64,000 bases of DNA from a virus, in IMG/VR virus record IMGVR_UViG_3300047160_020099, positions 64,001 through 128,000 of that record. One strand, 5' to 3'. Position numbers and translations under genes: made by a program. Shown in pieces: positions 2,987-64,000 of the stretch. How positions within the stretch are numbered: the stretch's first letter is position 1; each line of letters starts with the position of its first letter. A model generated the notes under the pieces. That model had not been told where the DNA came from. It ran no database searches and was given only the letters and a program-made list of their open reading frames with translations.

Positions 2987-3844
2987 GTGATTCGTTATCT
3001 CACCTGTCTGTTTCTGACCATCGCGGCGTTTGGCACGGCACTGGTGTACATCCCAACCGCGCCGGCCGGAACAGAAGCAGCCCAGAAGGGGGAAGATGCA
3101 CCCACCAAGGTCATGCCGCCGGCCAAAGAAGACGCCGAACCACCGATGCCAATGGCATCACCGCCAGGCGCTGCTGCCGGCGCCTTGCCAGACGACGGTG
3201 AGTTCAAGGAGATGAAGATCCCGGACACCAACAAAGTTGCCGGGTTGACGCTCACGCCGGATCAGACCGTTTCTGCCGCGAAACGTTTCGCCATCGTCCG
3301 TGCCACTACCGACAAGCCCGATCAGAAGGTGCGCTGGATCGTGCTGGGCGCGTTGCCGGGTCTCCAGCCCAGCTCGCTCGTATCGCCCAGCGGTCGGAGT
3401 ATTCTAATATTCCCGGCCGGTTATGCTGACCTGATCGTCGTGATGGCGTACAGCTCTACCGCGGACGGGCCTACAGACGTCGCCGTCAGCAAACTCGCTG
3501 TGGAAGGCCCGCTGGCGCCTTCTCCACAGCAACCAGCTACCAAACCGCCAGTCACAGGTAAGCTGCACGTCACGGTCGTCATCGACCTTGCCAAGCAGAC
3601 GCCTGAACTGGCGGCCATGCGAGCTTCCAAGGCCTTCCGTGACTTCCTTGGGAAAGAGAACTGCGTGTACCACGAGTGCAACCCGGCCACTGTGCCGGCC
3701 GACATAGGGGCTGCACTGAAGAAGGCTGGTCTCCCGTACCCGGCAGTCGTCATCCAGAATGCTGCCGGTGACATCGAGGAAAAGGCCACGTTTCTTACGG
3801 CCGAAGATGTAACAGGCCTTGTGGAACGAGTACGAGGTAAGTAA
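2987..3844 (+). CDS. secreted Pro-rich protein, C-terminal thioredoxin-like region
   Basis: AAGGAG RBS, GTG start, N-terminal signal peptide, GLPYPAVVIQ C-terminal motif. Confidence 0.7.
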   Translation: MIRYLTCLFLTIAAFGTALVYIPTAPAGTEAAQKGEDAPTKVMPPAKEDAEPPMPMASPPGAAAGALPDDGEFKEMKIPDTNKVAGLTLTPDQTVSAAKRFAIVRATTDKPDQKVRWIVLGALPGLQPSSLVSPSGRSILIFPAGYADLIVVMAYSSTADGPTDVAVSKLAVEGPLAPSPQQPATKPPVTGKLHVTVVIDLAKQTPELAAMRASKAFRDFLGKENCVYHECNPATVPADIGAALKKAGLPYPAVVIQNAAGDIEEKATFLTAEDVTGLVERVRGK

Positions 3845-4001
3845 GCTATGGGCGTAATCGGTCATACATGGAGGAGAAACAATGTCGGATCTCATTCTGA
3901 CAACCGAACCCCAACGACTGCTTCACGAAGGCAATCCCACCTCTGCGTAACGTCGCCAGCAGGGCTTCACCCAGGCCCTGCATCTTCGACAGGGAGGTCC
4001 T

Positions 4002-5990
4002 GTGCGTTGGCGACGACTTGTTCTGCCTCTGTTGCTTGTAGCCGGCATTCTACCCGTTCTTGGCGCCGAGCCCGACGCCCCTCCCAGGGTACGTACCGAC
4101 CGCTCCAGACCGCGACTGGCTGCTCGTGGTAACTGGACTGTCGTCAAGAACCTCTACACGCCAAACGACGCGGCCGAGGCCGCTCGTCAAGACTTGCGTA
4201 ACCTGGTGATCTCCAGATTGCCGGGCTATGCCCACATCTTCGTGGCTGCACCAGATAAGGCTGACCAGATCCTTGCTGAGTTCCAGTCCAAATACGCGAA
4301 AACCTTCTGCTACTACAGGTACTTGACCAGCTATAACTTCCCAGAAGCCATGCGGGAAGGGGTCTGGCAGGACGTTTCTTTCCTCGTGAACAGTCTCAGC
4401 CGGCACGACGAGAAGTTCCGACCAGCGTTCGGCGGTCCTGGCAACATCCTGATCCGCATCAACCTGCTTGACTACGACATTGATCCAGAGGATTGGGACA
4501 AGCTCGTTCTCAACGAGCCATACTTCCATCAGGATATTTTGCCTATTGCTGTCAGCAGTGTTGCTGCAACCTCGCCAGAAGAAGTACAACCCGGAACCAT
4601 CAACGAAGGCACGCCACACGCGACGATCAAGGTCCTGACCACGCCAGATGCCGACATACGCCTGGACGACCAGATCGTTCAATCCAGAGGCGCAGAGCGT
4701 ACGCTAGTCACGCCACCGCTGCTGGCAGGCAAGCGCTTCCGCTACACAGTTACCGCGGTCTGGCACGAAGGTGATAACGACCGTACAGCCACCAAACGCA
4801 TCCAGGTAATTGCCGGGCACACAACAGTGGTGGACTTGCGGGTTCCACGGGAACTGCCTGAAACACTGACAACAGTGACCGGCGCTCCAACGAGAGCAAT
4901 GGCTGGCTGGATCAATCCCTGTACCAACTCCGAGCTGGCCTTTCTGACACATTCGCAAGCGCCAATTGCTCGGGCTGATTGGTTCATCGCCAATGCGTCA
5001 GTACCACCAAACTACTACGATCTGCTGCGGCTGAAGACGCTCGATGACTTCAGGGATCTGGCAGGTTTCGACAAGCGGGCCGAACAACGCAAGGAAATTC
5101 GGGCCACGGTCGTCAGGTCCGGTTCTCATGGACTGGCTACGCCGGTCGCTCGCAACAACCGCATTCTGGCCCGTACACCGACATTCCAGGGCTACTTCTG
5201 GGAGACCTTCGACTTCCTCAACTCGGTCAAGGCCCGGAACGTCATCAACAACTTCCTCAACATCAGGGAAGACATTGCCCGACACTTCGAGGTCGGCGAG
5301 CTTTCCGGGCTTAACCCACGCGAATGGTTGCAGCACGTCCGCAACAAGCGTGGTTTCCGCGATGCTGGCGAATGGATCGCGTGTCTCCCCAATGGGCTGC
5401 AGTTTTACTTCCTGACCAATGGACAGGACCAGCGGCTGGACGAGGCAGACATTCACGTTGCGTACGATTCGACGGCCCACGACTTCCGGGTCATCAACGG
5501 CCGTTCCTGTATCTGGTGTCACTCAGACGGCATCCGGCCCTTCCGTAGCCAGTTCCAGCTCCAGATCGGTCCCAAGCAGCTGACGGACCTGGGCATCTAT
5601 CTGAACGACCCCGTGCGGGCACAGGAGCTGTCTGACTTCATTCGCAGGAAGTTCGGTTCGCCGCAGTTCGAGACCGTCATTCAGCGGGATCAGGCGTTCT
5701 ACAGCGAGAACATTGCCGCCGCCAATACACTGACGCCTGAATCCAACGCAGCCTTGTTCCGAAGTCTGTGGGACGGCTACCAGGAAGTGGACTTGAACCT
5801 GAATGTCATCTGTTATGAGCTGGGGATCCAGCCGGAAGAGGTCAAGGCACTCATTGCTGCACGACTCAACGGCGTCAACAACGGCGTCCTTTTGCAGCAA
5901 TTACTCCGGCCGCCGATAGCCATTCGCCGCGATCAATGGGAAGAGGTTTTCGATCAGATAGCGATCTTGACCACCCTGTTACGGCGGTGA
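4002..5990 (+). CDS. secreted protein with TIGR03000-like planctomycete domain and CxxCH haem motif
   Basis: GGGAGG RBS; signal peptide; ATIKV..PDADI.LD..RTLVTPPL.AGK.F.YTV.A.W (~4617-4842); LPNGLQ..NGRSCIWCH (5508-5522). Confidence 0.8.
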   Translation: MRWRRLVLPLLLVAGILPVLGAEPDAPPRVRTDRSRPRLAARGNWTVVKNLYTPNDAAEAARQDLRNLVISRLPGYAHIFVAAPDKADQILAEFQSKYAKTFCYYRYLTSYNFPEAMREGVWQDVSFLVNSLSRHDEKFRPAFGGPGNILIRINLLDYDIDPEDWDKLVLNEPYFHQDILPIAVSSVAATSPEEVQPGTINEGTPHATIKVLTTPDADIRLDDQIVQSRGAERTLVTPPLLAGKRFRYTVTAVWHEGDNDRTATKRIQVIAGHTTVVDLRVPRELPETLTTVTGAPTRAMAGWINPCTNSELAFLTHSQAPIARADWFIANASVPPNYYDLLRLKTLDDFRDLAGFDKRAEQRKEIRATVVRSGSHGLATPVARNNRILARTPTFQGYFWETFDFLNSVKARNVINNFLNIREDIARHFEVGELSGLNPREWLQHVRNKRGFRDAGEWIACLPNGLQFYFLTNGQDQRLDEADIHVAYDSTAHDFRVINGRSCIWCHSDGIRPFRSQFQLQIGPKQLTDLGIYLNDPVRAQELSDFIRRKFGSPQFETVIQRDQAFYSENIAAANTLTPESNAALFRSLWDGYQEVDLNLNVICYELGIQPEEVKALIAARLNGVNNGVLLQQLLRPPIAIRRDQWEEVFDQIAILTTLLRR

Positions 5991-6031
5991 TTATTGGTAG
6001 AATACGGGCGGACCACTGCCAGGAGGGCACC

Positions 6032-6736
6032 ATGCGATTCCATCTTTTTCTACCCATACTATGCTTGCTGTGGCTGGCAACAAGCGGCCGGTCGCAGTAC
6101 TATCAGCCGCCACCGCGTTACCAGCAGCAACCCTATTACCAGCCACAGCCCCAGATCATCTACCAGGACCGGGTCGAATACCGTGATCGCATAGTCCCGG
6201 TCGTTCAGCCTGTACCCTTCACTGTCGCTGTACCGGTAATCTCGTACCTGTACAACGGCTCCAGTTTCAGTCCTGTTTTCAACGCACAGACGACAGTAGC
6301 GAACCCGGGTCTTCAGGTAGCACAGACTACACAGCAGCAAGTACAGTCAGTACAGCAGACGCAGCAAGTTGCTGGCGGCCAGCTCCAGCTCGACGACGCA
6401 TTCATCGACAAGTTGATCGATCGCATCGAGCAGCGGCTGCAACAGCGCAACAAGCAGCCAATCGGGCCTCCGCCCGTACGGAAGGACGAGGCCCTTCACC
6501 AGCAGGTCGTGACGATCCTGTCCAACAACTGCGCTTCCTGCCACACGGCGCCCAAAGCCAAGGGTGGCATTACAATGTTCCTAGGTACCGGCGTCTTCAA
6601 CCCGGCCGTGGACAAGAAGAAAATCTTCGACGCGGCAGACGAGGGGCGCATGCCGCCCGCTGCCAAGACAGATCCATCGGCCGCGTTGAACGACGCCGAT
6701 ATTGCTTTGTTGCGACGCTGGCGAGACTCGGAGTAA
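6032..6736 (+). CDS. secreted protein with planctomycete-type cytochrome c domain
   Basis: AGGAGG RBS; signal peptide; Q/P/Y-rich linker; ILSNNCASCH (CxxCH at 6530-6544)..KGG..RMPP..L..DIALLRRW. Confidence 0.8.
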   Translation: MRFHLFLPILCLLWLATSGRSQYYQPPPRYQQQPYYQPQPQIIYQDRVEYRDRIVPVVQPVPFTVAVPVISYLYNGSSFSPVFNAQTTVANPGLQVAQTTQQQVQSVQQTQQVAGGQLQLDDAFIDKLIDRIEQRLQQRNKQPIGPPPVRKDEALHQQVVTILSNNCASCHTAPKAKGGITMFLGTGVFNPAVDKKKIFDAADEGRMPPAAKTDPSAALNDADIALLRRWRDSE

Positions 6737-6772
6737 GATCGAGGTATGGCTACCACACAAGGAGGAACACTC

Positions 6773-7624
6773 ATGCGTAAGCTCTTTGCCGTTTTCGCTC
6801 TGCTTGCTGCACTGACTTTTGCCAGCCCGGCTGGTGCCTGGTTCCGTGGAGGCTGTTGCGGCCCACGGTGTGGTGCCTCGTCCTTTAGCTTCCGTGGAGG
6901 CTTCTCCAGCGGAGGCTTCGGCTACGGTGGCTACAACTTCGGCCGCAGCTACGCACTGAACGCGCCGTTCTCTCTCCAGACCTTCGCGCCGGCGATGTCG
7001 TCTGGGTTTTCTTTCCAGGCCGCGCCGAGCATGCTGCAGTCTGACGTGTTCCAGCAGGTGATCCCGCCTATCGTCCAGCAGCGGGTGATCCAGCCGGCTA
7101 TCATCGAACAGACCATGACACGGCCATCGATCCAGACCTTCATGTCTGGATATGATCCTGGCTACCAGAGCAGCTACAGCTATCCGACAAACACGTACGA
7201 CACTGGCTACGATACCGGCGGCTATGGCTACGACCCCGGCAGCTATAGCTACGGCGGAGGTTACAGTCTGCCCTTCAACTCCGGCTTCAGCTCTGGCTAC
7301 AGCGGTGGCGGTTTCAGCTTGCCGTTCTCTGGCGGCTTTCGCTCTGGCTACGGCTTCGGCGGCGGCTTCTACGGCGGGTTCCGCGGGGGCTTCCGCAGTG
7401 ATGCCCGTACGCTGCCGATCCGTTTCCCCGGGTTCAGAGGCTCGGGCTTCTCCGCTGGCTTCGGAGGCTTCGGAGGCTTCGGTGGCTTCTCGCCGTTCTC
7501 TTCGACCAACGTCAACGTGAGCCGAGGAGGCCTGTTCGGCCGACGTACCAACGTCAATGTGCAATCGTTCTCGCCGTTCTCTTCGTCCAACGTCAATGTG
7601 AACGTTGGCAGACGGCGCTTCTGA
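6773..7624 (+). CDS. secreted Gly/Phe/Ser/Tyr-rich low-complexity protein
   Basis: AAGGAGG RBS; signal peptide; GGF repeats; duplicated FSPFSS(T/S)NVNV. Confidence 0.75.
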   Translation: MRKLFAVFALLAALTFASPAGAWFRGGCCGPRCGASSFSFRGGFSSGGFGYGGYNFGRSYALNAPFSLQTFAPAMSSGFSFQAAPSMLQSDVFQQVIPPIVQQRVIQPAIIEQTMTRPSIQTFMSGYDPGYQSSYSYPTNTYDTGYDTGGYGYDPGSYSYGGGYSLPFNSGFSSGYSGGGFSLPFSGGFRSGYGFGGGFYGGFRGGFRSDARTLPIRFPGFRGSGFSAGFGGFGGFGGFSPFSSTNVNVSRGGLFGRRTNVNVQSFSPFSSSNVNVNVGRRRF

Positions 7625-7648
7625 ACTTCGGCCGTCGCCAGTCCCAAG

Positions 7649-7681
7649 GACGCCGTCGCCACAAGCGACGGCGTCTTTTTT
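7649..7681 (+). terminator. intrinsic terminator
   Basis: GACGCCGTCGC-CACAA-GCGACGGCGTC followed by T6. Confidence 0.85.
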
Positions 7682-7697
7682 GAACCATGGTTGTGCC

Positions 7698-9104
7698 ATG
7701 CCTTTCGAGTACCCAACTGACCAGCGTGACAACCTGAATGTCTACGCGAGCCTGATAGCCAGCTTCTGGACCACGCTATTCGGCAACGTCGATAACGTGG
7801 TGGACCTGCTGCGCACCTACAAGCTGTCCGAGCGGCAGCTGGCCGGCCAGATGCAGGAGCTGCAAGACACCGTTGGTCGGCAGACTTGTCCCGTCCACCA
7901 CACTCAGGACTGGTACGAGCTTACGCTGCTCCTGTCTACTCGGCAGGCTGGACCCATACCCGGTAGTGTCAGTTACGTTTTGCCGGCAGTTTTACAGAAC
8001 TGCCTACAGGTCACCAACGCCATCACAACCCCTTCCGCAGCCTGGCACAATGGCGTCTCGATGACGATCGACCCGGTCAACCACCTCATCAACTTCGCCG
8101 CCGATCCATTCAACGACCCGAATGTAGTACCTGTACCTGTTCACGATTCCACAGGCACGGTCATCGATACAGCGCTGACGCTGTGGCTCTTCAAGGCGAA
8201 GCTCGACTGGCAGTATCTCTACGAGCAATTCGGTTACGTGGTTGGCGTCGGACAAGACATGGCAAGCACCTACGCCCTCAAGACCTTGCTCAACGCCGTC
8301 TATGACGCCTACACCGCGGGCAGTACCTACGACGCTGTAAGCCGGCTGTTAACAGCACTCACGGACATACCACTCGCGGTCGGCAACGAGACTGTACAGG
8401 CGATCACGCAAGACGCCACCAACTTGCTCGTTATAACCGACCAAACTGTGTATAAGTTCTCGCCAGACGCAACGGCAGTTGTACTGCCTGGGCAACAGCT
8501 CAACCGCAACGATCCGCTCACCGACGCCTTGCAGATCATCGAGCCGACAGCTGGGGTCATCCCGCCGATAATCTCGCAGCTCTCCCTCGGCCCTGGCTTC
8601 CTGCTCGTCGATATTTCGAACGAGCTGCTGTTCAAAAATGCCTCGGTCCCCCTGAACGTGCAGACGGGCGTGAGTGGCTACACAAAGCTGACCTGGCAGT
8701 TGGGCGGCTTTACCACCGACGTGACGACGTTCTTCAACGACCTGCATTCAAGAGGTGTGGCGGCTGGTGCCACGCTCGCCAATTACCTGGATACGCGGAC
8801 GGTACCCGTCGGACAACCAACCGCTGCTGATCTGCCTACCGGTATCAACCCTCTTCAGTTCCTGGTGCAGAACGTCCTTCGCAACAACTGTCTGTTCGTG
8901 TATCTGAAGGTAGACCAGTTTGGCCCCAAGGCACTTGGCACCGGTCTGGCCAGCTTGTTGCGACAGGTGGTGCCGCCACACATGACCGTGATCGTCTACG
9001 CCGAGGTCGTCCAGGCTACTGAGGCCGTTACAATGAACGGTGTTGGCAGTCTGACCAACCCTGGCTATGCTGAGAGCTATTCGCTCTATACCACACCCGG
9101 TTAA
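7698..9104 (+). CDS. putative baseplate/tail structural protein
   Basis: 468 aa, T/V/P-rich; C-terminal L.QVVPPH similar to baseplate wedge proteins; tail-module context. Confidence 0.6.
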   Translation: MPFEYPTDQRDNLNVYASLIASFWTTLFGNVDNVVDLLRTYKLSERQLAGQMQELQDTVGRQTCPVHHTQDWYELTLLLSTRQAGPIPGSVSYVLPAVLQNCLQVTNAITTPSAAWHNGVSMTIDPVNHLINFAADPFNDPNVVPVPVHDSTGTVIDTALTLWLFKAKLDWQYLYEQFGYVVGVGQDMASTYALKTLLNAVYDAYTAGSTYDAVSRLLTALTDIPLAVGNETVQAITQDATNLLVITDQTVYKFSPDATAVVLPGQQLNRNDPLTDALQIIEPTAGVIPPIISQLSLGPGFLLVDISNELLFKNASVPLNVQTGVSGYTKLTWQLGGFTTDVTTFFNDLHSRGVAAGATLANYLDTRTVPVGQPTAADLPTGINPLQFLVQNVLRNNCLFVYLKVDQFGPKALGTGLASLLRQVVPPHMTVIVYAEVVQATEAVTMNGVGSLTNPGYAESYSLYTTPG

Positions 9105-9114
9105 GGAGCCAAAT

Positions 9115-9249
9115 ATGCCTCATGTGCTCATTGCGGCTGTCTTGTTGCTGGTCGTGCTGGCAGTTGCAGGCTCGCGCGACAAGGAGTACGAGGGCAAGCC
9201 AGTCATCCTGCCGTTCAAGCGACCCGACAGGAAGGGTAATTCGGCATGA
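9115..9249 (+). CDS. small membrane protein
   Basis: AAGGAG RBS, one hydrophobic segment, overlaps next start. Confidence 0.5.
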   Translation: MPHVLIAAVLLLVVLAVAGSRDKEYEGKPVILPFKRPDRKGNSA

Positions 9250-9893
9250 CGCCTCTCAAGAAACGCTGGCGACGCCTGGAGAAGCGAGTACCAGGGCTGT
9301 ACGTCAATCCGGATATCTGTCATGGGCGGTATCAGATCTACCGGATTGACGAGGCTACCGGCCACTGGGACTTCTTGTTCTCCAAAGAGAACCTGGTCCT
9401 GTACACCTGGGGCTACCTTGCCTGCCAGTGCATTGGCCGTGGTAATCCAGCCTACGCTGTGGCAGCCGCTTACCTGGAGTACATGAACGTCGTTACAGCG
9501 GGCACCGTGGTAACGCCGCCTACCTACGACCGCTCGGCCGGCCTATCCTATTTCAGCGGCTTGCCAGTCAACAAGGATTATCTGCGTGTGCCGCTCGTTG
9601 GACTGCCAACGATTGACATTGCTCCTGGCTATGAGCCGTACTTCGTCTCTGGCTCAACCGGCAACCGTGCAACATTCGTTGCACAAAGCACCGGTACTGT
9701 GGGAGTGAACGGCCAACCTTACTCGGCGGCTGCGTTGTCCACAGTCTATGGTGTCACGCTTGTTGCTACACCAGTGCAGAACACACCTGCCGACGACATC
9801 ATCCTGAGTCGTGGGTATTTCAATACTAACGACCAGCAGTTGAAGCAGGACGGCAGCCAGATCGGCGTCCGCTGGAAGATCAGTTTCCAATGA
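9246..9893 (+). CDS. putative tail/baseplate fibre-attachment protein
   Basis: ENLV..G N-terminus and V.WKISF C-terminus typical of proteins preceding tail fibres. Confidence 0.55.
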
Positions 9894-9906
9894 GCAGGGA
9901 TGCGTT

Positions 9907-11319: not shown

Positions 11320-11334
11320 GAAAACGAGGAAGCC

Positions 11335-11796
11335 ATGCGAGGCGAATATACAGTATCGGTTGCACTTACCGGCGTGGGACCCCCGGCCACCATTCCAGCA
11401 ACGCTGCTTTTGCTCAAAACACCATCAGCTGCAATAGTTGAGGTGCTGGAAGCCTGGATCCAGTCCGAAGACGGTATTGCTCAGCAGATATCTGGGGCTC
11501 TATCCAGAGTTGCTAGTCCTGGCTCGCCAGCTGGCTCGACAGTTACGCCCGAGAAGATGGAGCCCGGCGATCAGGCTAGTGGTTGTACTGTGATCGTTAA
11601 TGTCGAACCTACTGGCAGCTATGACGGCGTTCCTGTTGACTGGCAAGGGGCACCAGCAACCTCTGGCTATCTGTTCAGTGAACCGGTTGGAATGGGCGCC
11701 TTCGCAGCTCCGAGCACCGGCATCGGGCTGAGGATCGAAGAGATCACAACTGCTGGCAATTTCATCGTCGGGCTGCGCTGGGTCGAACACGGATGA
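11335..11796 (+). CDS. hypothetical virion-associated protein
   Basis: GAGG RBS; beta-rich 153 aa after the fibre gene. Confidence 0.65.
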   Translation: MRGEYTVSVALTGVGPPATIPATLLLLKTPSAAIVEVLEAWIQSEDGIAQQISGALSRVASPGSPAGSTVTPEKMEPGDQASGCTVIVNVEPTGSYDGVPVDWQGAPATSGYLFSEPVGMGAFAAPSTGIGLRIEEITTAGNFIVGLRWVEHG

Positions 11797-11877
11797 GTAT
11801 TCCGATACTCGTCTTGTCGGTCGTCCGCCAGGCAGCTACACTGGCTGACGACTGGCATTCCTTCAACGGAGGTGAGC

Positions 11878-12306
11878 ATGAATGGTAAGGTTGAGGTGAA
11901 GATGGTTGGTGCCAACCAGCTTCCAGACTTCCTGCTGAAGCTGTTCAATCAGCTCGGCTGCAACCTCGGGCCGGAGGCTCAGGGCAATGGGGAAGACGCC
12001 GTGCCCGTTGAGCCAGATCCGTATGCCGGTCTGTGTAACTTCGTGGCCGACCAGATGTACTCCATCGACTGCGGCAAGCAGAAGTTCGATGAGAGGCTGA
12101 CAGCTCTGGCCGACAGTCTCGACAAGCATCCGCAGACACAGACCGAGGTTCATCGGCTTCGCGAGGCTGTGTCGCACAAGCTGGATGAGCTCCGCGATAC
12201 GATGCTGCTTCTCGACCCGGTGCTGAAGAACCTGGCCAACGAACAGAAGGCCCAGCAGACAGCCGCGGAGAAGGAAGCCTTCCTCCAGGAAGCCATCAGC
12301 AGCTGA
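11878..12306 (+). CDS. hypothetical coiled-coil protein
   Basis: GGAGGTG RBS; helical C-terminus. Confidence 0.65.
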   Translation: MNGKVEVKMVGANQLPDFLLKLFNQLGCNLGPEAQGNGEDAVPVEPDPYAGLCNFVADQMYSIDCGKQKFDERLTALADSLDKHPQTQTEVHRLREAVSHKLDELRDTMLLLDPVLKNLANEQKAQQTAAEKEAFLQEAISS

Positions 12307-12328
12307 ACAAGCTGGTACTTTGCTGACG

Positions 12329-12355
12329 AAGGCCGGGCAGAAGCCCGGCCTTTTT
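12329..12355 (+). terminator. intrinsic terminator
   Basis: AAGGCCGGGC-AGAA-GCCCGGCCTT plus T tract. Confidence 0.8.
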
Positions 12356-12358
12356 GTT

Positions 12359-12821: not shown

Positions 12822-13082
12822 ATGCTCATCGACGATTCCACAATCAACGCACTGTTACAACGGCCAGAAATGGTCAGGGAGTTCCCTTTCCTGCTGGCCA
12901 CTACCGAGAATGCAAAGGTATGTTGCGGGCGTAGCCGTCGCGTTGCGAACTACCCAATCATCAAGCAGACGATTGCCGGCATGCCCACGGAGCGTAAGGA
13001 GCTCTTCAAGAAGATGCTGGGCGTGCTTTCTTGCCGAGTTGTCTTCCAGGTCAACAACTCCATCTCCGATATCACGATCTAA
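12822..13082 (+). CDS. hypothetical protein
   Basis: 86 aa, packed after previous gene. Confidence 0.65.
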   Translation: MLIDDSTINALLQRPEMVREFPFLLATTENAKVCCGRSRRVANYPIIKQTIAGMPTERKELFKKMLGVLSCRVVFQVNNSISDITI

Positions 13083-13111
13083 AATAGTCGTAAAAGTGCG
13101 ACATTATTGTA

Positions 13112-13780
13112 TGCAGGATCACTACTTCTCGGCCTTTTCGGCCGGGAAGGAATGGCCTGCGACAGGAATCAGCTGTTGGCTTTGGAGTACATCTTGAGCA
13201 CCATTGAGATGTCGGCGAAAGCCGGCCTCCGAGGCCTCCCCTCGCTGATTCTTGTGGCCCCGGCGTGCTAACACCACGCCGGGGTCCCAAACGGTGTGTT
13301 GTGCGCAAGCTGACCGGCCTAACATCACCTACAAAAGCCGGCCTACACGAGGGCCGGTTCGACGTGCGAAAGCACGGACTGTGGCCTGTCCCCTGAAAGA
13401 CACGGGGCAATGGTGATACAACACACCGAACAGGGGCGGGCGCACGCCCGCGTCGCCGCCCCTGCCACTGTCCCTGTGAGCGAACACAGGGGGACAGGCC
13501 GCCAGCGGTCGAGCGACCGGCCAATCGACCGCTGGCACCTTCTAACATCGCCCGGCTTTCTGTCCTTCGCTGGGCGGTGTTGCCAGCGGCCGGCCCCGGT
13601 CAAGTGTACGGCCGCTGGCATTTCAGCTGCCTCCTGCCGGGAGCCTGTCCGCCCCGGCCCACATCGAAATCCTTCACGCCGCTTTGTTAAGCGGGTGGAT
13701 GATTGTGCCGGCAGCCCCCTGCCCGGCCTACAATCCTCTTACCCACTTCTCAAGCTCGTGATAGGATTACCGATGTGGAT
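13112..13780 (+). ncRNA. large structured non-coding RNA, family not recognised
   Basis: More than a dozen helices with + strand G-U wobbles, GAAA tetraloops and nested long-range stems; no credible ORF. Confidence 0.7.
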
Positions 13781-14640: not shown

Positions 14641-15346
14641 GAATCGTCTGGCGACCTTCTGGCGCGATCCTCAGATGTTTGGCTTCAACCTCCTGGTATT
14701 GTTCATGGACGTCTACGGAGCCGAAGGCCTCAACTGGATGCCTGAGACTATCGAGATGGAGATCCGCGACGACAGTGGCGTCGATCTGCCGGAAGCCAAC
14801 TTCGACAAGCTGCTGACAGCCATTTCTCTTCTTGTCACTGACAACTTCTTCGTGAGCCCGACAGACTTCACACGAGCGTGTGTGGTCCTGTCAGGCCATG
14901 TCGTGAACCCCGGTTCTCTGATCCTGCCCGACTGTGCCGATCTGGCCTGGGGCCTCACCGAAGGCATGATGATCAATCCACCTGACGAAGATAACGAGGC
15001 ACCCTTCTCGAAAGAGATTGTTGCTTACGTAGGTGCGTGTCTGAATGACGAAGGTATTCTGAACCCTCCTGATATCCTGCGTATCGGCCTCCGTGACAAA
15101 GATTTGGCTGACAACGCACGGTACAGCTTTTCCGACGACCCGGAGATGATGGCGGCGATTTCTGGCTTCGAAGAAGACAAGACGTCGTCCATCAACTCTC
15201 TGGTTCTCAACCGGCTCAAGGACCTGTTCGCGCAACTCCAGTTGTTGCCCCTCAAGAACGGTCAGGCCGTTGCTGTAGCACGGAAGATGATGGCCGGGCT
15301 GGCCCATCAACCCGCTAGCGGCTCACCGCTAAATTCACCCGTTTGA
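14615..15346 (+). CDS. hypothetical acidic protein
   Basis: AGGAG RBS, 243 aa. Confidence 0.7.
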   Translation: MPSEYQLLENRLATFWRDPQMFGFNLLVLFMDVYGAEGLNWMPETIEMEIRDDSGVDLPEANFDKLLTAISLLVTDNFFVSPTDFTRACVVLSGHVVNPGSLILPDCADLAWGLTEGMMINPPDEDNEAPFSKEIVAYVGACLNDEGILNPPDILRIGLRDKDLADNARYSFSDDPEMMAAISGFEEDKTSSINSLVLNRLKDLFAQLQLLPLKNGQAVAVARKMMAGLAHQPASGSPLNSPV

Positions 15347-15411
15347 GTATTGGAATACATGCAGTTGTCGGTACCACGGGGTGCCGGCGTATCGCTGCGC
15401 GCGGAGATCCG

Positions 15412-22120: not shown

Positions 22121-22134
22121 AGTATTCGAATACT
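22121..22134. promoter_or_regulatory. perfect copy of dispersed palindrome AGTATT-NN-AATACT (intergenic)
   Basis: AGTATTCGAATACT; 12 further copies listed in findings. Confidence 0.75.
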
Positions 22135-29837: not shown

Positions 29838-29859
29838 TGCAATACTCGTGGAGAGGTTC

Positions 29860-36560: not shown

Positions 36561-36564
36561 TACT
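36551..36564. promoter_or_regulatory. perfect copy of dispersed palindrome AGTATT-NN-AATACT upstream of dcd
   Basis: AGTATTGTAATACT overlapping the GP88 stop codon. Confidence 0.75.
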
Positions 36565-45807: not shown

Positions 45808-46122
45808 ATGTCACTGGACTTCTGCATTGGCGAAGAGGAATTGCGTAAGGCGCTCAAGCTGATTGAGGCTGCCAAGCGGGGTGGCTACAGCCACACATTG
45901 GCGGTTTTCGAGATCAGTCAAGCAGGCAAGAGGCTGGATGATTGTCTTGCCGTGTCTGATGGTTCTGTCGTGTTGAAGGCCCATCCGACCGACAGCCATC
46001 AGAACTGGGGTCGTGCTTGGGACCCAGAAGATCACATAGTGGTTGACGGCGTCTCTCGATACAGAGATGAGTTAGCACCGGAATTCGACAAAAGGCAGTT
46101 ACTGGGAGGCGATGACGGATGA
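45808..46122 (+). CDS. hypothetical protein
   Basis: AAGGAG RBS. Confidence 0.55.
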   Translation: MSLDFCIGEEELRKALKLIEAAKRGGYSHTLAVFEISQAGKRLDDCLAVSDGSVVLKAHPTDSHQNWGRAWDPEDHIVVDGVSRYRDELAPEFDKRQLLGGDDG

Positions 46123-46385
46123 GTGACGTGGAGATTTTGAAGACAGTTGGCGACATCGGTTTGCCACCAGAAGATACTCGTGAAGTTGGAGAATTTGGCA
46201 GGCGTCTCTTCTTGTGGAGACAGCACAGAGGCTTGACCCAGAAAGAGCTAGCTGCAAAGGCTGGCACGCATCCTTATGTGATAACTGCGGTAGAGAGTGG
46301 CGTTGCAAAAGGTGCGCAACTCAATACATTGCGTAAGCTCGCGCAAGCTCTTGGCATAACGATCAGCCAGCTGGTCGGTGCATAA
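46119..46385 (+). CDS. XRE-family helix-turn-helix regulator
   Basis: R..RGLTQKELA.KAG..I..VESG..TL.KLAQALGI. Confidence 0.85.
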   Translation: MSDVEILKTVGDIGLPPEDTREVGEFGRRLFLWRQHRGLTQKELAAKAGTHPYVITAVESGVAKGAQLNTLRKLAQALGITISQLVGA

Positions 46386-58304: not shown

Positions 58305-59368
58305 TGAGACCTGATTTGTACAGGAGGCTAGAACAACGTTCACGACGCTACGGCTTCGGCAAGGTGCTTTTCGCCCACGAGAACGAAGCCATGAGTTGTC
58401 ATTACGGCGCTGACAGCATAACAGGACGGCAACGACTCATTGTCGATATGCCGGGTGAATACCTGCGAGTCAACTGCCCGTTCTGCACGGATACCCGGCA
58501 CCGCCTCTGGATCAACTATCAGTGGGGTCTTTATGATCCAAAGATAGGCACCCTCAACCTTTGGCTAGCTATCTGTTTCAATGAAACCGCGTGCATGGAC
58601 AAGCCAGGGAAGCCTGAAGAGTTGTACCGGATCGTCTATAACGATGTCACCAACCGACGACAAGTAAGAGCGGGCGATACAGTCAACAAAGGCATCAAGG
58701 TAGACAAGGCAGCCATATGCCACTTCAGGCCGGCTGGCAACGTGCTGTATCCTCTTCACGTTTTGCCACCGCATCATCGTGCGTTGGCATATCTGCGTAG
58801 TCGAGGTTATGACCCGAACCAGTTGTCTCTGGAACACGGCGTCTCTTATTGTGCGGATGCTAGCGCTGAATTTCCCAAGGCATTCGACAGGATCATCGTT
58901 CCAATTGTGATGCGTGGAGAACTGGTTGGTTGGCAAGGCCGGTACATTGGTGAGCCACCCAAGGGCGTGATGAAGTATTACAACATGCCCGGGATGCAGA
59001 AGATCAAATACTTGTACAACTTCGATGTTGCCTCAAAATACCCATTTGTGGTGTTGACCGAGGGAGTAACAAAGGTCTGGCGAATCGGTCCGGAGGCTGT
59101 GGCACAGTTCGGCAGTACGCTGGCTGGCTTTCAGGCACATCTGATAGATGCGACGTGGCCGACCGTCGTTGTCTACCTGGACGGCAACGCCCACGAGCAA
59201 GCTGAACAGGCCTATTGCTCGTTGCGGGCCATGCCCAACCGTGTCAAGATCCTGCTACCACCAGGGCAAGAGCCTGGTGATTTCAGCCAGGAATATAATC
59301 GTGCGTTGATACTCAATGAAGCCAGAAAGCAAGGCGTAACGTTGCGAATGGACGGAGCAGAGATATGA
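58301..59368 (+). CDS. dnaG: DNA primase (Zn finger + Toprim)
   Basis: RVNCPFC.D..H, YLRSRG, RIIVPI..LVGWQGR, KYYN, LTEG, YLD.NA. Confidence 0.85.
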   Translation: MMRPDLYRRLEQRSRRYGFGKVLFAHENEAMSCHYGADSITGRQRLIVDMPGEYLRVNCPFCTDTRHRLWINYQWGLYDPKIGTLNLWLAICFNETACMDKPGKPEELYRIVYNDVTNRRQVRAGDTVNKGIKVDKAAICHFRPAGNVLYPLHVLPPHHRALAYLRSRGYDPNQLSLEHGVSYCADASAEFPKAFDRIIVPIVMRGELVGWQGRYIGEPPKGVMKYYNMPGMQKIKYLYNFDVASKYPFVVLTEGVTKVWRIGPEAVAQFGSTLAGFQAHLIDATWPTVVVYLDGNAHEQAEQAYCSLRAMPNRVKILLPPGQEPGDFSQEYNRALILNEARKQGVTLRMDGAEI

Positions 59369-62300
59369 GTCCGTGGTCGAATACAGTCCAGACCGTCGAA
59401 CCACCCGAGCAAGCCGGTGAAACCACCAAGGCGCTGCAGACGATCGGTTACGACATGATGGAGGTCTACCCGCTCACCAGCCCAGGTATGCCAATACCTG
59501 GACCTGATTTCGTGGCCCAGGCCGTTGGTATGGGTGACGAGTACCCAGTGATCGAAGGCACCAAGCTCGATAAATGCGTGGTGGCCTGTGGGCCTAACCT
59601 GGAGGAGCTATACAAGCAGGCCCTCTACACCGTGGGTTTCGTGTTGCCGGTCAAGGTCAAGGGCCGTCAGGTCAACACGACGTTCATACCAGGCCACCTG
59701 TGGGGCAGCGATATGGCTGGCCCCAGGCCTGCCAGGGTCATGCTAGTAGGCAAGTGGCCAGGCCCACAGGAAGTGATCGCCAACCGGAACTTGGTGGGCG
59801 AGTCAGGAGCCATCCTCATCGAAGCTCTGGAGAGCTTCGGCATCTCCTGGGAAGAGTGGAACTCCTGGTACATTACCAACCTGGTCAAACACCCGAACGT
59901 GGATCCAGCCTCGCAAAAGCCGGCCCAGTCCATTGTTCGGAACTGCCTGCCACTTCTGTCCAATGAGCTACGTTTCGTACGGCCAGACTTCGTGCTGGCG
60001 ATGGGTGCCGAGGCCTACACAGCTCTGGTCGGCAAGGGCGAGGGCTCGGTGTCTCAGGCACAAGGTCGGATCTTCGAGCGTTCCTGCTTTATCCTCGATC
60101 CGGACGGCGATGGCACAGAAGGCACCTACCACTCCTACAAGGTGATGGGTTGCATCCATCCGGCAGCTGTAGCGCATTCCGCCGATTCACTGCCTGCTTT
60201 TCGTACAGGCATCGAGCACTTCGTCAACATGGTTCGCGGGCAGGTCAAGGAAACTCAACAAGAAGAACTGCATCACCAGCTGATCTACAACGAGGCACAT
60301 CTGGCCTCTGTTGTTGACACCATCCTTGACGAGGACCCGGCGCCGTGCGTGGCCATCGACTGTGAATGGCATGGCGAGTATCCAACGGAGCCAGGTGCCT
60401 GGCTCCGTACTGTCCAGTTCAGCCACAAGCCCGGACACGCTTACTGCCTTGTCTTGCGCGAGGCTGGAGGCCGGCTGGCATTCCGCAGTTCGATCAAATC
60501 AACCGTTCCACATCTACGACGGCTGTTGCTGGAAGGACGTGGACCGAAGAAGCCACGGCTGATCGGACATAGCATACGTGCTGACTTGCCGTGGCTGACA
60601 CTTGGCCTGGACCGAGAGCTTGGCAAGCAGTTGATTGAGGCCAGCAATGCGCCAGAGAACGTCATCAGTCCTGACGGCAAAGTCGTCGAGATGGGCTGGC
60701 GGCGAACCAAGGAAGAGGGTGGCTTCGACACGATGCTGGCTGCACACTCGATCAGGGAGACGGACGGCAGCTACTCCCTCGACATCCTCGGTTTGCAATA
60801 CTGCGGTATTCCTCGTTACGACCAGGCCCTGCAGAAGTGGAAGGCAGAGTACTGCAAAACTAACCACATGGAGCTCAAGGAGCTTGATGGATACGGGATG
60901 TGTCCAGACGACATCCTTCATCCATACGCATGCCTTGACGCCGACGTGACGCAGCAACTCTTCCCCAAGTTCAATGGCGAGCTACTCGATCACGATCCAT
61001 ACGACAATGACAGCCGCATACCATTCTGGATCAGTATGCGGGCTTCGCTCGGCTTCCTCGAAATGGAAATGACTGGGCTGCTGATAGACCGGCCTCGCGG
61101 CGAGAACTTGACACAGGTTTATCTGGATGCAAGAAATCGGTTGCGACAGAAGCTAGAAGAGCTGTTCCAGTGGCCGGGCTTCAATCCCAATTCGGCACAG
61201 CAGTGCAAGGTCGCTCTCTTCGGCGAAAAGTTCTCCGACAAGCGTGACCCGGACACCGGTGAGCTGGTCAAGATCCAGCCGCCTGGTGCGTTGCTCTTGA
61301 ATCTGCTGCCCATCAAGACTGCTGGCAAGCCATCCAAGGACTGGGAACTGGTCATCAGGAAGAAGCAGGAGCATCTCTTCGGGCCATCCACCGACAAGGA
61401 GGTACTCGGCGGGCTGATTACAAGACTCAGCCCTGACACCAAGCGGGGAGAAGGTCCCAAGTTCGGTTTCGAACACGTCACGGCCCTTCGCAACTTTCGT
61501 TTCGCTGGCCAGGTGGTCAAGTCTGTCTTGCGGGCGCCTGTGGCTGAGAATACTCAGCACAACACGAACATCAATGAGGACGGGCAGCTCGAATACGAAG
61601 AGGGTGTCCTGTCGTGCATCCATGTTGACGGCAGGGTGCGTACGCATCTGTTCCAGACCAAGGAAACTGGACGTGCCTCTTCTGCCAGGCCACCCTTGCA
61701 GAACTGGAGCAAGCGTCGGGAAAAGGCCTACAAGGACATCCTCGGCGAATCCTACCTGTATCCACTCCGGACCATGGCCATGGCCACGCCGGGATGGGTC
61801 TTCGTGGAGGCTGACTACCGCGGTGCCGAGCTGTTCATGATGGCCATACAGTCCGGCGACCAGAAGATGATCGAGCACTGCTTGCGGGCCAATCTCCCTG
61901 ATAGCGATCCCAACCAGTACGACATCCACAGCAACCTGGCAGTCAGAGCTTTCGGTCTGAAAGTTACTGACACAGTGCCCAATGACAAGAAGAAGAACCC
62001 AGACAAGCTGACAGCATCGCAGCTGTTGAAGCTGCCGGTCGGCTCGCCGCTGCCACCTACCAAGACAGCGCTGTGGGCCATCGGCATGCCACATATCCGC
62101 GATGTGACGAAGTGTGTAGCAGCTGGTTCACGACTTCTGACTGATCGAGGCTGGATCAGAGTAGAGGAGTTATGTGGTGCATTAGGCGCTGGCGGTTCCG
62201 CCGTCGGAGACGGTTCTGTCATTTCTGATAATGGCGTGACCCCTCTTGTCGGCCTGTATAACGGCGGCGTAAAGCCGTGTATAAAACTGACAGGTGAAGA

Positions 62301-64000
62301 CGGCTACGAACTAATTAGCAGCGAGACTCACAAGTATCGAGTGGTTGACAAGCGTGGCCGATACGTATGGCGTGCGGCTGCCGATATGAAACCGGGTGAC
62401 TGGGTAGCGGTTTTGGATGCCATGGAACCAAAATGGACTGGTGACGCTACCTTCCCAGCTATCGAGGTGGAAGCCAAGACCTGTTTCAAAGACATGGACT
62501 TCCCAGAGCAGTTCAATGAGGACTGGGCGGCATTTCTCGGTTTGTATATCTCGGAGGGAAGTGCCAACCCAGTAACAGGTGTTCTTCAAATCTGCCTGGC
62601 TGTCGAAGACGACCCGACATTCGGGCTAGAGTCAGTGGCAGTTCTGAGCAGGCTGTTTGGCGGCCGGTTGAAGATCGGTTGGGTGGATTACGAGAAACAC
62701 CAGAATCAGATTCGGCTTACGCTCAGCACCGTGAAGCTGGCACGCTGGCTGGATAAGTATTGTCCTGGTGATTCCTATACCAAACGTGTTCCAGATTTTG
62801 TCTTCAAGTGGCCTCCGGAACTTCAGCGGGTTTTCTTGCGGTGGCTTTACGAAGGCGACGGTTCAGTCAAGAAGAACGGAAAAGGCTTTTCCATCACGTA
62901 TGCAACCGCAAGTGAAGGTCTTGCCAAAGACGTGCAGATCTTGCTGAATGGCCACGGTGTTTATGTAAGACGTTCTTCCGAACGCCGTAAAGGCTACGAT
63001 CACAACTACTGGTGCTTGCAGCTCAAGTACAACGAGTCGCGTTGTCGCTTCGTCGAAAAGATCGGTTTCGTAACAGCCAGCAAGCAAAACAAGTGTGCCA
63101 ATAGTGCTACTTATGCTCTGGACTGGGATACGATACCGTATCAAGATGAGCACCTTCGAATAGTATTCCAATACTTGACTGGTGCTGTGAAAGAGAAATG
63201 CCGCGAATGTGTGCGGAAGAATCAACGTGTCAGGCTCACCCGGAATAGATTGCTTATGCTTGTGGAACAGCTCATGCAGCACCAAGATCTGCCGAGACGT
63301 GCCCAGGAAACGCTCGACCATCTTCAAAAGCTGTCCGAGAAGCCTGTTAGGTTTGAACGCGTGAAAACGATTGAAAGTGTTGGGGTGTTGCCGGTGTATG
63401 ACGTGCAGACGACGGAGCCACACTCAGTGTGCTATAACGGATATTTGACACACCAAACGATCGTGTTCGGTCTCCCATATGGAAGAGGTGATAAGGCCAT
63501 TATTCGTGCCGTGGAAGAGGAAGGCACGCAGATCTCCATGCAGGATGCCGCTGCAATCCGAGCGGCGATCCTGACGGAGTATGCAGATCTTGGGCCTTAC
63601 CTCGAACGTTGTCAGGCACGGGTAAAGAATCCTGGCTGGATGCGTAATTGCTACGGTCGCTACCGCCGCTTCCAGCGCGTACGTTTCGGTAACGAGGATG
63701 GCTCTGCCGAACGTGAGGCTGGCAACTTCCCGATTCAGTCCGGCGTGGCAGATGCAGTTAGCCGAGCACTGGACCATCTCTACACCTGGCCAGACCGTTA
63801 TGACGAGAACGGCGTGCCGAAGTTTCGGATGGTCCTGCAGATCCACGACGCGATCCTGTTCGAAGTCCAGATACCCTGGCTGGAGTGGTTCATCGGGACC
63901 GAGGAAGAGCCAGGCGTTGTCGGGAAGTGCATGACCGAGCGTGTAGCTGTGTGGATGTGCGATCTCAACGGCGACAAGAACCTCAAAGTCGAGCCATTCC
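59365..64000 (+). CDS. polA: family A DNA polymerase with N-terminal UDG family-4-like domain, 3'-5' exonuclease and intein (3' truncated, absent from ORF track)
   Basis: Open frame from ATG 59365: PARVMLVGKWPG..E..VG.SG, IDCE, FDTMLAAH, YACLDAD, TGRASS.PPLQN, EADYRGAEL, R..TK[intein]TIVFGLPYG, NFPIQS, LQIHDAILFE. Confidence 0.92.
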   Translation, partial: MSPWSNTVQTVEPPEQAGETTKALQTIGYDMMEVYPLTSPGMPIPGPDFVAQAVGMGDEYPVIEGTKLDKCVVACGPNLEELYKQALYTVGFVLPVKVKGRQVNTTFIPGHLWGSDMAGPRPARVMLVGKWPGPQEVIANRNLVGESGAILIEALESFGISWEEWNSWYITNLVKHPNVDPASQKPAQSIVRNCLPLLSNELRFVRPDFVLAMGAEAYTALVGKGEGSVSQAQGRIFERSCFILDPDGDGTEGTYHSYKVMGCIHPAAVAHSADSLPAFRTGIEHFVNMVRGQVKETQQEELHHQLIYNEAHLASVVDTILDEDPAPCVAIDCEWHGEYPTEPGAWLRTVQFSHKPGHAYCLVLREAGGRLAFRSSIKSTVPHLRRLLLEGRGPKKPRLIGHSIRADLPWLTLGLDRELGKQLIEASNAPENVISPDGKVVEMGWRRTKEEGGFDTMLAAHSIRETDGSYSLDILGLQYCGIPRYDQALQKWKAEYCKTNHMELKELDGYGMCPDDILHPYACLDADVTQQLFPKFNGELLDHDPYDNDSRIPFWISMRASLGFLEMEMTGLLIDRPRGENLTQVYLDARNRLRQKLEELFQWPGFNPNSAQQCKVALFGEKFSDKRDPDTGELVKIQPPGALLLNLLPIKTAGKPSKDWELVIRKKQEHLFGPSTDKEVLGGLITRLSPDTKRGEGPKFGFEHVTALRNFRFAGQVVKSVLRAPVAENTQHNTNINEDGQLEYEEGVLSCIHVDGRVRTHLFQTKETGRASSARPPLQNWSKRREKAYKDILGESYLYPLRTMAMATPGWVFVEADYRGAELFMMAIQSGDQKMIEHCLRANLPDSDPNQYDIHSNLAVRAFGLKVTDTVPNDKKKNPDKLTASQLLKLPVGSPLPPTKTALWAIGMPHIRDVTKCVAAGSRLLTDRGWIRVEELCGALGAGGSAVGDGSVISDNGVTPLVGLYNGGVKPCIKLTGEDGYELISSETHKYRVVDKRGRYVWRAAADMKPGDWVAVLDAMEPKWTGDATFPAIEVEAKTCFKDMDFPEQFNEDWAAFLGLYISEGSANPVTGVLQICLAVEDDPTFGLESVAVLSRLFGGRLKIGWVDYEKHQNQIRLTLSTVKLARWLDKYCPGDSYTKRVPDFVFKWPPELQRVFLRWLYEGDGSVKKNGKGFSITYATASEGLAKDVQILLNGHGVYVRRSSERRKGYDHNYWCLQLKYNESRCRFVEKIGFVTASKQNKCANSATYALDWDTIPYQDEHLRIVFQYLTGAVKEKCRECVRKNQRVRLTRNRLLMLVEQLMQHQDLPRRAQETLDHLQKLSEKPVRFERVKTIESVGVLPVYDVQTTEPHSVCYNGYLTHQTIVFGLPYGRGDKAIIRAVEEEGTQISMQDAAAIRAAILTEYADLGPYLERCQARVKNPGWMRNCYGRYRRFQRVRFGNEDGSAEREAGNFPIQSGVADAVSRALDHLYTWPDRYDENGVPKFRMVLQIHDAILFEVQIPWLEWFIGTEEEPGVVGKCMTERVAVWMCDLNGDKNLKVEPF
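62113..63456 (+). mobile_element. intein (448 aa) with LAGLIDADG endonuclease in polymerase motif B, ending His-Gln
   Basis: Starts CVAAGS; FLGLYISEGS and FLRWLYEGDGS; VYDV..NGYLTHQ, +1 Thr. Confidence 0.9.

Follow-up and report, generated by a model that had tools for sequence, protein, structure and literature searches.

The dispersed palindrome in the window and along the contig

The DNA analysed here, called the window below, is a stretch of 64,000 nucleotides corresponding to bases 64,001-128,000 of a single 161,936-bp virus contig with 57.8% GC (IMG/VR record IMGVR_UViG_3300047160_020099, designated G000), and the element in question is a 14-bp palindrome, AGTATT-NN-AATACT, which recurs throughout the window and beyond it. 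The record was estimated by CheckV to be about 78% complete and is linear. Our own gene call gave around 197 genes, 185 of them on one strand, with 6.6% of the DNA being non-coding, and the genes identified included those for Baseplate J, a GpA-type large terminase, a class II ribonucleotide reductase, an SbcC-like protein and a DnaB-like protein. The phage also carries a multisubunit RNA polymerase (RNAP) composed of a 1,964-aa beta-beta' fusion (Rpb2 domain 6 followed by Rpb1 domains 1-2, genome positions 3591-9485) and a separate beta'-C protein (Rpb1 domain 5, genome 10527-12404), as well as a sigma-like gene (genome 63295-64026) whose product contains sigma-70 region 3. G000 is an uncultured, myovirus-like soil phage of about 160-200 kb. 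Among the sequencing runs listed, parts of it are present only in soil metagenomes, at low depth, and none of these runs is of RNA. It looks virulent, having its own RNAP and sigma factor and no integrase found in the 78% of the genome at hand.

In a sequence-only reading of the window, 13 copies of the palindrome had been reported, five perfect and eight with a single mismatch, six of them at gene junctions and seven inside coding sequences (CDSs). All 13 were recovered where that reading had placed them, and the same division between junctions and CDSs was obtained with our own gene call, the six junction copies overlapping or just following a stop codon with the next start 12-69 nt further on. 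The expectation for perfect copies was 0.00 (100 dinucleotide shuffles), and perfect and one-mismatch copies together numbered 13 against 0.02 expected in dinucleotide-preserving shuffles. In window coordinates, the copies are the following:

3398-3411, one mismatch (AGTATTCTAATATT), inside a CDS, frame 0
9814-9827, one mismatch (GGTATTTCAATACT), inside a CDS, 66 nt ahead of the stop
11796-11809, one mismatch, junction, first base overlapped by the upstream TGA stop
15346-15359, one mismatch, junction, first base overlapped by the upstream TGA stop
22121-22134, perfect, junction, stop 6 nt before and next start 19 nt after
29833-29846, one mismatch, junction, contains the stop codon, next start 14 nt on
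36551-36564, perfect, junction, upstream TAA stop within the motif
41954-41967, perfect, inside a CDS, frame 1
43531-43544, one mismatch, within the gene of the Cys4 protein P0121
47304-47317, one mismatch, intergenic, 12 nt to the start of the gene (presumed SbcD) upstream of the SbcC-like gene
55378-55391, perfect, inside a CDS, frame 2
57517-57530, one mismatch, within the DnaB-like helicase gene
63162-63175, perfect, in the family-A DNA polymerase gene, within its LAGLIDADG intein

The copy at 3398 had been said to use rare codons, and it does read AGT ATT CTA ATA TTC with a codon adaptiveness of 0.33; that at 63162, described as lying in the polymerase intein, was located at about residue 1266 of the family-A DNA polymerase, within the intein spanning residues ~970-1363. 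Neighbouring copies had been given as 1.6-8.4 kb apart, of which the lower limit was right but the upper one was not, the measured range in the window being 1.6-8.1 kb. The copy at 36551 was found to be identical in a soil-metagenome contig, this being the one site covered by such contigs, which are 150-450 bp long.

The motif is not confined to the window. A count over the full 161,936-bp contig, proposed earlier as a check, gave 19 perfect, 18 one-mismatch and two two-mismatch copies. Since the two-mismatch copies are at background level, the real set comprises about 37 copies and the word tolerates at most one mismatch, implying strict recognition. When all 6-mer arms with spacers of 0-8 bp were surveyed, this word was the sole outlier palindrome of G000, with 19 copies observed against 0.011 expected. 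Lone half-sites were not enriched, AGTATT being present 36 times and AATACT 51 times in total, mostly within copies. An exact-word scan of IMG/VR yielded, among the matches listed, single chance-level ones only.

The sites are real, they occur about once every 4.4 kb, and their spacing is much more even than chance would give. For the gaps, the coefficient of variation (CV) is 0.48, as opposed to 0.98 when sites are placed at random, and the longest measures 9,013 bp where a mean of 18,400 bp is expected at random; none of 20,000 randomisations was as regular (P < 1e-4).

Placement at gene junctions and cost in coding sequences

Fifteen of the 37 copies are situated at gene junctions, that is, in the small non-coding share of the DNA, and 22 are inside CDSs; three further copies lie no more than 14 nt from a predicted start. 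The usual layout at a junction is a stop codon that is overlapped or just passed, the motif, 12-20 nt and the start codon, which places the motif just 5' of the ribosome-binding site (RBS). At two junctions outside the window (genome 53969 and 128933), a GC-rich terminator hairpin is followed directly by the motif and then by the RBS and start.

The 22 CDS copies are spread over the three frames (6/8/8), thereby encoding three unrelated peptides, and their position within genes is uniform. They are written with rarer codons, the geometric mean adaptiveness being 0.49 as opposed to 0.71. A control with shuffled codons had also been called for, and in 100 synonymous-codon shuffles the mean number of CDS copies was 1.5 and the maximum 4, to be compared with the 22 observed.

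Several known classes of element were searched for at the sites. Promoters of the sigma-70 type and terminators were not enriched and none coincides with the motif, and an Rfam search of the window returned no family. An intrinsic (rho-independent) terminator was ruled out, the AT-rich stem being no more stable than random and lacking a T-run; genuine GC-rich terminators are found elsewhere, for instance at window 12328-12353. REP elements with a RAYT transposase, which are imperfect palindromes of 20-40 bp outside genes and bear a GTAG/CGTC tag, were rejected as well, as 60% of the copies are intragenic and the motif is a 14-bp exact dyad with no extended flank homology. The sole Rep-like hint of a REP-type Y1 HUH transposase is protein P0121, described below, whose HUH matches are tied with generic folds.

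Symmetry of the word and folding of its copies

The arms are identical at 11 or more of their 12 positions in the 37 copies, and the centre, mostly S-S, shows no strand bias (CC 7, GG 6, CG 7 and GC 7). The flanks mirror each other. An extension of the dyad into them (R...Y) had been claimed as frequent and turned out to be weak only, position -1 being G in 17/37 and A in 5/37 copies and position +1 being C in 17/37 and T in 11/37. The outer half-sites AGTA and TACT are 10 bp apart from centre to centre, and the motif as a duplex probe has the sequence AGTATTCGAATACT.

No compensatory variants were found in G000: among 20 fully symmetric AGT-N8-ACT sites, 19 are the consensus, and in our own reading of the mismatched copies 3/18 mismatches are G-U compatible. 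Folding of 24-nt RNA at the sites gave -3.87 kcal/mol compared with -3.50 kcal/mol for random genomic 24-mers. The symmetry of the word, the lack of compensatory variants and the absence of additional hairpin stability favour its recognition on duplex DNA by a symmetric dimer.

Related phages carry different words

No nucleotide match to G000 was obtained among GenBank phages, whose terminases are only 21-27% identical to its own, and metagenomes contain a large uncultured family with terminase identities to G000 of up to 72%. A terminase scan of metagenomes for close relatives gave only one, of 3 kb. The RNAP and sigma-like genes are kept in the relatives G002-G004 and are core genes of the phage family.

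The IMG/VR record G001 (137.9 kb, 48% GC, 67% complete) has a terminase 53% identical to that of G000 and is collinear with it over about 100 kb. It carries 61 copies of a word of its own, TTGAGTAA-YGCR-TTACTCAA (GAGTAA-YGCR-TTACTC), which extends to a 20-bp palindrome, and 55/61 are at junctions, where they contain the stop codon and precede the next start by 12-18 nt. In R119, a 92.8-kb contig rebuilt by walking with zero overlap mismatches (terminase 57%), the word is AGTCGT-RY-ACGACT, present in nine perfect copies and one with a single mismatch against 0.01 expected; seven of the nine perfect copies are at junctions (7/10 when all copies are counted). G003 (153.7 kb) and G004 (119 kb), with terminases at ~48-49%, share CAWAGAT·ATCTWTG in 30 and 18 copies respectively, 33-40% of them at junctions. 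G002, a complete 198-kb genome with direct terminal repeats, yielded no dispersed palindrome, and shortening the arms to 4 and 5 bp for greater sensitivity did not change this. L118, the closest relative fragment (terminase 72%, 18.9 kb), has no copy of the word and no other repeated word, its length being uninformative at a density like that of R119.

In the motif-bearing relatives the gaps are all more regular than random (CV 0.57-0.72, P 0.003-0.05). The share of copies at junctions rises with the length of the word, from 33-70% for 14 bp to 90% for 20 bp, and because longer words are more confined to junctions, this suggests that cost, not function, dictates placement.

The word turns over from lineage to lineage on a common skeleton. 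In G000, R119 and G001, the three closest lineages, the outer AGT...ACT is common and at identical spacing, with the inner bases being ATT, CGT and AAY respectively; by a rough estimate, the chance of three independent 14-bp dyads sharing this outer part is at the 1e-3 level. Moreover, the orthologous junction following a gene of ~1,530 aa carries in each of these three genomes the word of that genome, +16 nt from the stop in G000 and in R119 and +3 nt in G001, and the same junction has no word in G002, G003 and G004. Between G003 and G004, the 14 motif columns diverge by 8.4% and the flanks by 24% (Fisher p = 3e-9), and the core is kept in 14/16 alignable sites, which indicates that their word is under purifying selection. 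Taken together, these comparisons point to a system that is inherited, while individual sites come and go and the word drifts. Co-evolution of the sites with a protein that reads them would be expected to look like this, and has been documented for the repressor and stoperators of Cluster A mycobacteriophages (PMC6550527).

Some features of individual relatives were recorded separately. The 20-bp element of G001 folds at -6.1 kcal/mol compared with -2.5 kcal/mol for random 24-mers, its centre is strand-biased (CGCA 24 vs TGCG 8, p = 0.007, 61 sites), and some copies are extended to AAAGTTGAGTAA...TTACTCAACTTT, flanked by A/T runs; it may also act at the RNA level or in a terminator-like way. 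In R119 the first four copies (996, 13558, 26096 and 39533) are near-periodic, with gaps of 12,562, 12,538 and 13,437 bp. Ruler-like spacing was considered for this contig and abandoned, the pattern having broken down along the rest of it. A triplet of AGTCAAAATTGACT in G002 was likewise rejected as a dispersed word, being a local hairpin/iteron cluster: at 140,550-140,850 of that record, between two genes, dense hairpins are formed by GACTGCCGTCACGTGGCAGTC (four times), AGTCAAAATTGACT (three times) and GGGAGTCTGACTCCC (twice), and the cluster is a candidate origin or regulatory region.

Search for the reader protein

Profile searches of G000 gave no match to Phage_integrase, ParA-type (AAA_31) or ParB_N, in a record that is ~78% complete. 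The ParB N-terminal domain (PF02195, six-frame search) was found in none of G000-G002 under conditions in which 11 of 14 control genomes matched, although a very divergent or host-encoded ParB might escape; none was detected in G000-G004 once G003 and G004 were included, and no ParA-type ATPase (PF13614) was present in G000-G004 either. Searches of more than 40 candidate proteins against Pfam and PHROGs revealed no shared DNA binder.

The only recognisable sequence-specific dimeric DNA binder found in G000 is encoded in the window:

46119-46385, + strand, XRE/Cro-C1-type helix-turn-helix (HTH) protein of 88 aa (HTH_3, E = 9e-11)

Its geometry would fit the dyad AGTA-N6-TACT, with half-site centres ~10 bp apart. 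A search for homologues among 5.8 billion proteins returned one distant match, on a 3.5-kb contig, and had no power. The XRE protein is thus a candidate reader, one that the comparative data do not support. In any candidate, changes would have to go along with those of the inner bases from word to word.

Two other proteins, P0121 and P0122, first fitted the profile of being present in motif genomes and absent from G002. P0122 is structural-looking. P0121 (window 43190-44014, + strand) is a basic protein of 274 aa with an invariant Cys4 cluster (N-C-x-P ... C-x5-C-P-W-C-x2-R) and a near-invariant R-Y-P-x-G-L motif, and it belongs to a large unnamed family (897 representatives at E <= 1e-3), for which Pfam, PHROGs and the sequences of the PDB gave no match. 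The argument for it from presence and absence fell when a profile search revealed a divergent member in motif-less G002, and it is a core gene of the phage family. Its model, at a predicted local distance difference test (pLDDT) score of 93, has a ferredoxin-like core and gave no Foldseek match; in VIA, generic ferredoxin-like matches were obtained with HUH-type Rep nucleases tied among them (Z 5.4-5.9), and no HUH motif is present among the invariant residues.

The conserved basic protein specific to G003 and G004 was discarded as a reader, being a pyrimidine-dimer glycosylase, as was a 189-aa protein common to G000, G001 and R119, which is RNase H-like. A 143-aa basic protein common to G000, G001, R119 and L118 gave a low-confidence model (pLDDT 59), and two further proteins common only to G000, G001 and R119 are featureless.

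Probable docking sites and a possible barrier network

It is probable, and we say so with considerable confidence, that a symmetric, sequence-specific protein docks on the copies in duplex DNA and co-evolves with them. The phage itself is the most likely source of this protein. A homodimer would dock on the double-stranded copies, each half reading an outer AGT(A) half-site, and the 10 bp between half-site centres would correspond to one helical turn. Together the sites would form a network that covers the entire genome and leaves gaps of 9 kb at most; in it, a site is located between the stop codon and the next RBS where a junction is available and is otherwise written into a CDS at a codon cost. 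Bound dimers could then serve as barriers or insulators to transcribing RNAP, by which the phage may silence or time expression along an almost unidirectional genome.

What the data show is that the sites are real, selected, symmetric and evenly spaced and that the word changes with the lineage; the dimeric reader, its origin from the phage and the barrier function are inferred. The barrier or insulator function taken alone, in which the sites would be a symmetric counterpart of the stoperator network, is tentative and stays short of an even chance. The whole statement, in which the sites dock a phage-encoded, co-evolving homodimer and have a barrier function, is held at evenly balanced confidence. 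The barrier network is favoured because it accounts together for the coverage spacing, the preference for the stretch from stop to RBS and the co-evolution of reader and word. As for the earlier inference that a dimeric protein reads the sites genome-wide, it is supported by the true dyad, the lack of strand bias and of covariation of the hairpin type, the use of three frames at a cost in codons, the even spacing and the different words of the relatives with their purifying selection; the particular models named with it did not fare as well, as set out further below.

A number of observations weigh against the proposed barrier network. G000 looks virulent, which makes it hard to see what self-silencing would be for. 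The majority of its copies (60%) are intragenic, at positions unrelated to gene boundaries, and the low cost of junctions could alone explain the enrichment there. The profile, comparative and structural searches identified no reader in G000, and the proteins restricted to motif-bearing genomes include none that resembles a DNA binder. Of the five genomes, only G000 has the XRE protein, HTH_3 being unmatched in G001 and G002, and the syntenic region of G001, a genome that has the AGTA-N6-TACT skeleton in common with G000, encodes only acidic small proteins and no XRE. G002, a complete member of the family, manages without any such word. Finally, G000 and G001 have sites at corresponding positions no more often than chance would give, the junction that follows the ~1,530-aa gene being set aside.

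The main rival is a marking or organising role, in which the same dimer-bound sites serve a physical process of the whole genome, such as compaction, tethering, the loading of a protein that spreads or slides along DNA in the manner of KorB, ParB and Noc, or the marking of phage DNA as 'self' against that of the host or a competitor, for protection or packaging. It explains equally well why copies are found within genes and why the spacing is even with a capped largest gap; the sites have no orientation, copy densities are alike across lineages despite the different words, and the closer confinement of longer words to junctions is as expected if position matters only through cost. On the other hand, neither a ParB N-terminal domain nor a ParA-type ATPase was detected in G000-G004, no SMC-loading or partition module was recognised, the sole SMC-like protein being an SbcC/Rad50-type nuclease subunit, and the stereotyped stop-motif-RBS placement in G001 (55/61) suggests a link with gene expression. 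We consider this role unlikely, while giving it more weight than any of the rival explanations that follow. A more far-reaching reading, to which we assign a slightly lower probability, is that of an undescribed, widespread phage 'genome word' system, in which a fast-evolving reader and tens of evenly spaced sites would co-evolve, each lineage rewriting its genome throughout with a private word as a mark of self-identity. If this were true, a phage could tell its own DNA from that of the host or a rival for protection, silencing or packaging, and related phages would be incompatible.

The four other explanations are less likely for G000. One of them, improbable in our judgement, holds that the phage exploits a protein of its host which binds the word, for instance one associated with the nucleoid, a global regulator or part of a defence system, the words reflecting different hosts and the host of G002 lacking the factor. 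In its favour, no shared phage-encoded reader was found across the motif-bearing lineages, and the words differ with lineage GC (0.48-0.62), probably reflecting different hosts. The word was, however, not enriched in 807 bacterial genomes (802 from two phyla and five metagenome-assembled genomes, or MAGs, holding relatives, two of which also head the phylum samples), with at most two copies per genome, a weak argument as the sample is small and the host not identified. The bins in which relatives were found belong to many phyla and point to no one host. The retention of the skeleton, the drift of the inner bases and the replacement of words in situ resemble co-evolution within a genome, as in Cluster A phages.

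A target for a dimeric site-specific nuclease or nickase, whose nicks or breaks would serve recombination-dependent replication, clamp loading or the start of packaging, is equally improbable. The strict recognition, with no more than one mismatch, and the palindromic site agree with homodimers resembling type II restriction enzymes, and candidate enzymes are at hand in HNH proteins, a DUF1016-type PD-(D/E)XK protein and the Cys4 protein P0121: G000 has an HNH domain, a DUF1016_N protein common to G001 and a member of the core P0121 family, whose ferredoxin-like core has the Rep nucleases among its tied matches. Double-strand cutting at 37 sites, however, would break the genome into pieces. 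Motif-less G002 has P0121 too, the structural matches of this protein are indistinguishable from generic ferredoxin-like folds, and no HUH motif is to be seen in its invariant residues.

The sites were also considered as promoters or activator-binding sites for the phage RNAP, forming a middle or late class spaced along the genome, which seems very unlikely. In favour of this, the phage has a multisubunit RNAP (beta-beta' fusion and beta'-C) and a sigma-like factor, one promoter per 4-5 kb, the density of the sites, is typical of large phages, as with T4 late promoters, and at genome 53969 and 128933 a terminator hairpin, the motif, an RBS and a start come in this order. Yet a palindrome would fire both ways and 185/197 genes point one way, no conserved downstream element is present, only 12-20 nt separate the motif from the start codon and many copies are mid-gene, and the RNAP and sigma core genes are found in motif-less G002 too.

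As for an RNA or single-stranded DNA hairpin, acting as an intercistronic stability, processing or translational-operator element read by an RNA-binding protein or RNase, the stable and strand-biased 20-nt element of G001, lying just 5' of the RBS in 55/61 cases, and the same location of the G000 junction copies speak for it, but it has a very small chance of being right for G000, since folding at the sites of G000 and G003 shows no advantage over random genomic 24-mers, arms of 6 bp are unable to close over a spacer of 2 nt, compensatory or G-U-tolerant variants are absent, there is no strand bias, 22 copies are in coding sequence and Rfam gave no match in the window.

Comparison with known repeat systems

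Among published elements, the one most like the G000 word is a dyad repeat described in Cluster O mycobacteriophages (Cresawn et al. 2015, PMC4351075), a 17-bp sequence (5'-TGTTCGGNNNCCGAACA) present in more than 30 copies per genome, for which the reader and function were left open. Like the G000 word, it is a short dyad with invariant arms, a variable centre and no meaningful orientation, in tens of copies, and its distribution in Corndog (14 intergenic, 10 5'-proximal and 10 intragenic) may be set beside the 15 junction and 22 CDS copies of G000. The sequences are unrelated, on the other hand, the arm/spacer arrangement is 6-2-6 in G000 as opposed to 7-3-7, and the Cluster O phages are ~70-kb siphoviruses of Mycobacterium whereas G000 is a much larger, myovirus-like soil phage with its own RNAP.

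Stoperators and KorB/OB can be regarded as functional analogies, the tests of their defining features failing in both cases. Cluster A mycobacteriophages (L5, Bxb1; PMC6550527) have 20-30 dispersed stoperators, most of them not in promoters, with site and repressor co-varying between lineages. The genome-wide dispersal and the coverage logic, stoperators blocking transcription anywhere, are like those of the G000 sites. The stoperator model as put forward in the sequence-only reading is not supported, however: stoperators are 13-bp asymmetric sites oriented with transcription and bound by a known immunity repressor in temperate phages, whereas the G000 site is an unoriented perfect dyad in a virulent-looking phage where no set of repressor and integrase was found. 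On plasmid RK2, the palindromic operator OB of KorB is repeated at kilobase intervals and acts at a distance through a DNA-loaded clamp, also far from promoters (PMC11790492). The G000 word is similarly a palindrome repeated at kilobase intervals over a mobile element, but KorB is a ParB-CTPase, and the searches of G000-G004 gave neither a ParB N-terminal domain nor a partner of the ParA type. ParB/parS and Noc/NBS make up the wider class to which KorB/OB belongs, and the parS/NBS model suggested earlier, which needs a ParB-family protein, is not supported for this same lack. OB and parS are moreover fully specified palindromes, unlike the G000 word with its degenerate centre.

In geometry, the operators of the phage 434 repressor and Cro are similar. 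These are 14-bp dyads, ACAA-N6-TTGT, whose outer 4 bp are read by an HTH dimer and whose central 6 bp are variable, and as with AGTA-N6-TACT of G000 their half-site centres are one helical turn apart. Six operators at two promoters of a temperate phage are nevertheless a different arrangement from 37 sites throughout a genome.

Dispersed short palindromes have been noted already in a few phage genomes, notably those of Cluster O, without a known role. What is new here is a natural experiment at the level of a family, with four words in four lineages and one complete genome devoid of any, together with the AGT-N8-ACT skeleton conserved in three lineages, the replacement of the word in place at one junction, and the quantification of even spacing and purifying selection. 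If the reader does turn out to be a genome-wide barrier, a loader or an identity mark, it would represent a new layer in how large virulent phages organise or police their DNA, and would provide a compact orthogonal set of pairs of protein and DNA site for synthetic biology.

Other features of the window and of the relatives

A search for Phage_integrase found nothing in G000-G003 and one match in G004, where a tyrosine recombinase (record 104,649-105,137, - strand; E = 2e-12) is the sole one in the five family genomes examined; given this gene, some family members may be temperate. The beta'-C gene of R119 contains a Hom_end_hint domain, which is intein-associated, and may hold an intein. In a further relative, L122, tandem units with a 37-bp period are arranged in three blocks (1393-1726, 11889-12311 and 12968-13190) around a core ...TGCGC-N10-TTGGTACTCGC...; as 37 is not a multiple of 3, these arrays are probably non-coding, iteron- or CRISPR-like.

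The window itself contains three other genes of note:

59365-64000, continuing to 64116 (genome 123365-128116), family-A DNA polymerase with an N-terminal UDG-superfamily domain and a 3'-5' exonuclease, besides its intein
15343-18099, + strand, AAA+ ATPase of 918 aa with an HNH_3 endonuclease domain (residues ~586-615) inserted upstream of the ATPase module
6032-6736, + strand, gene in the baseplate/tail region, common to G001, with sub-threshold cytochrome c / haem-binding matches (E = 5e-4)

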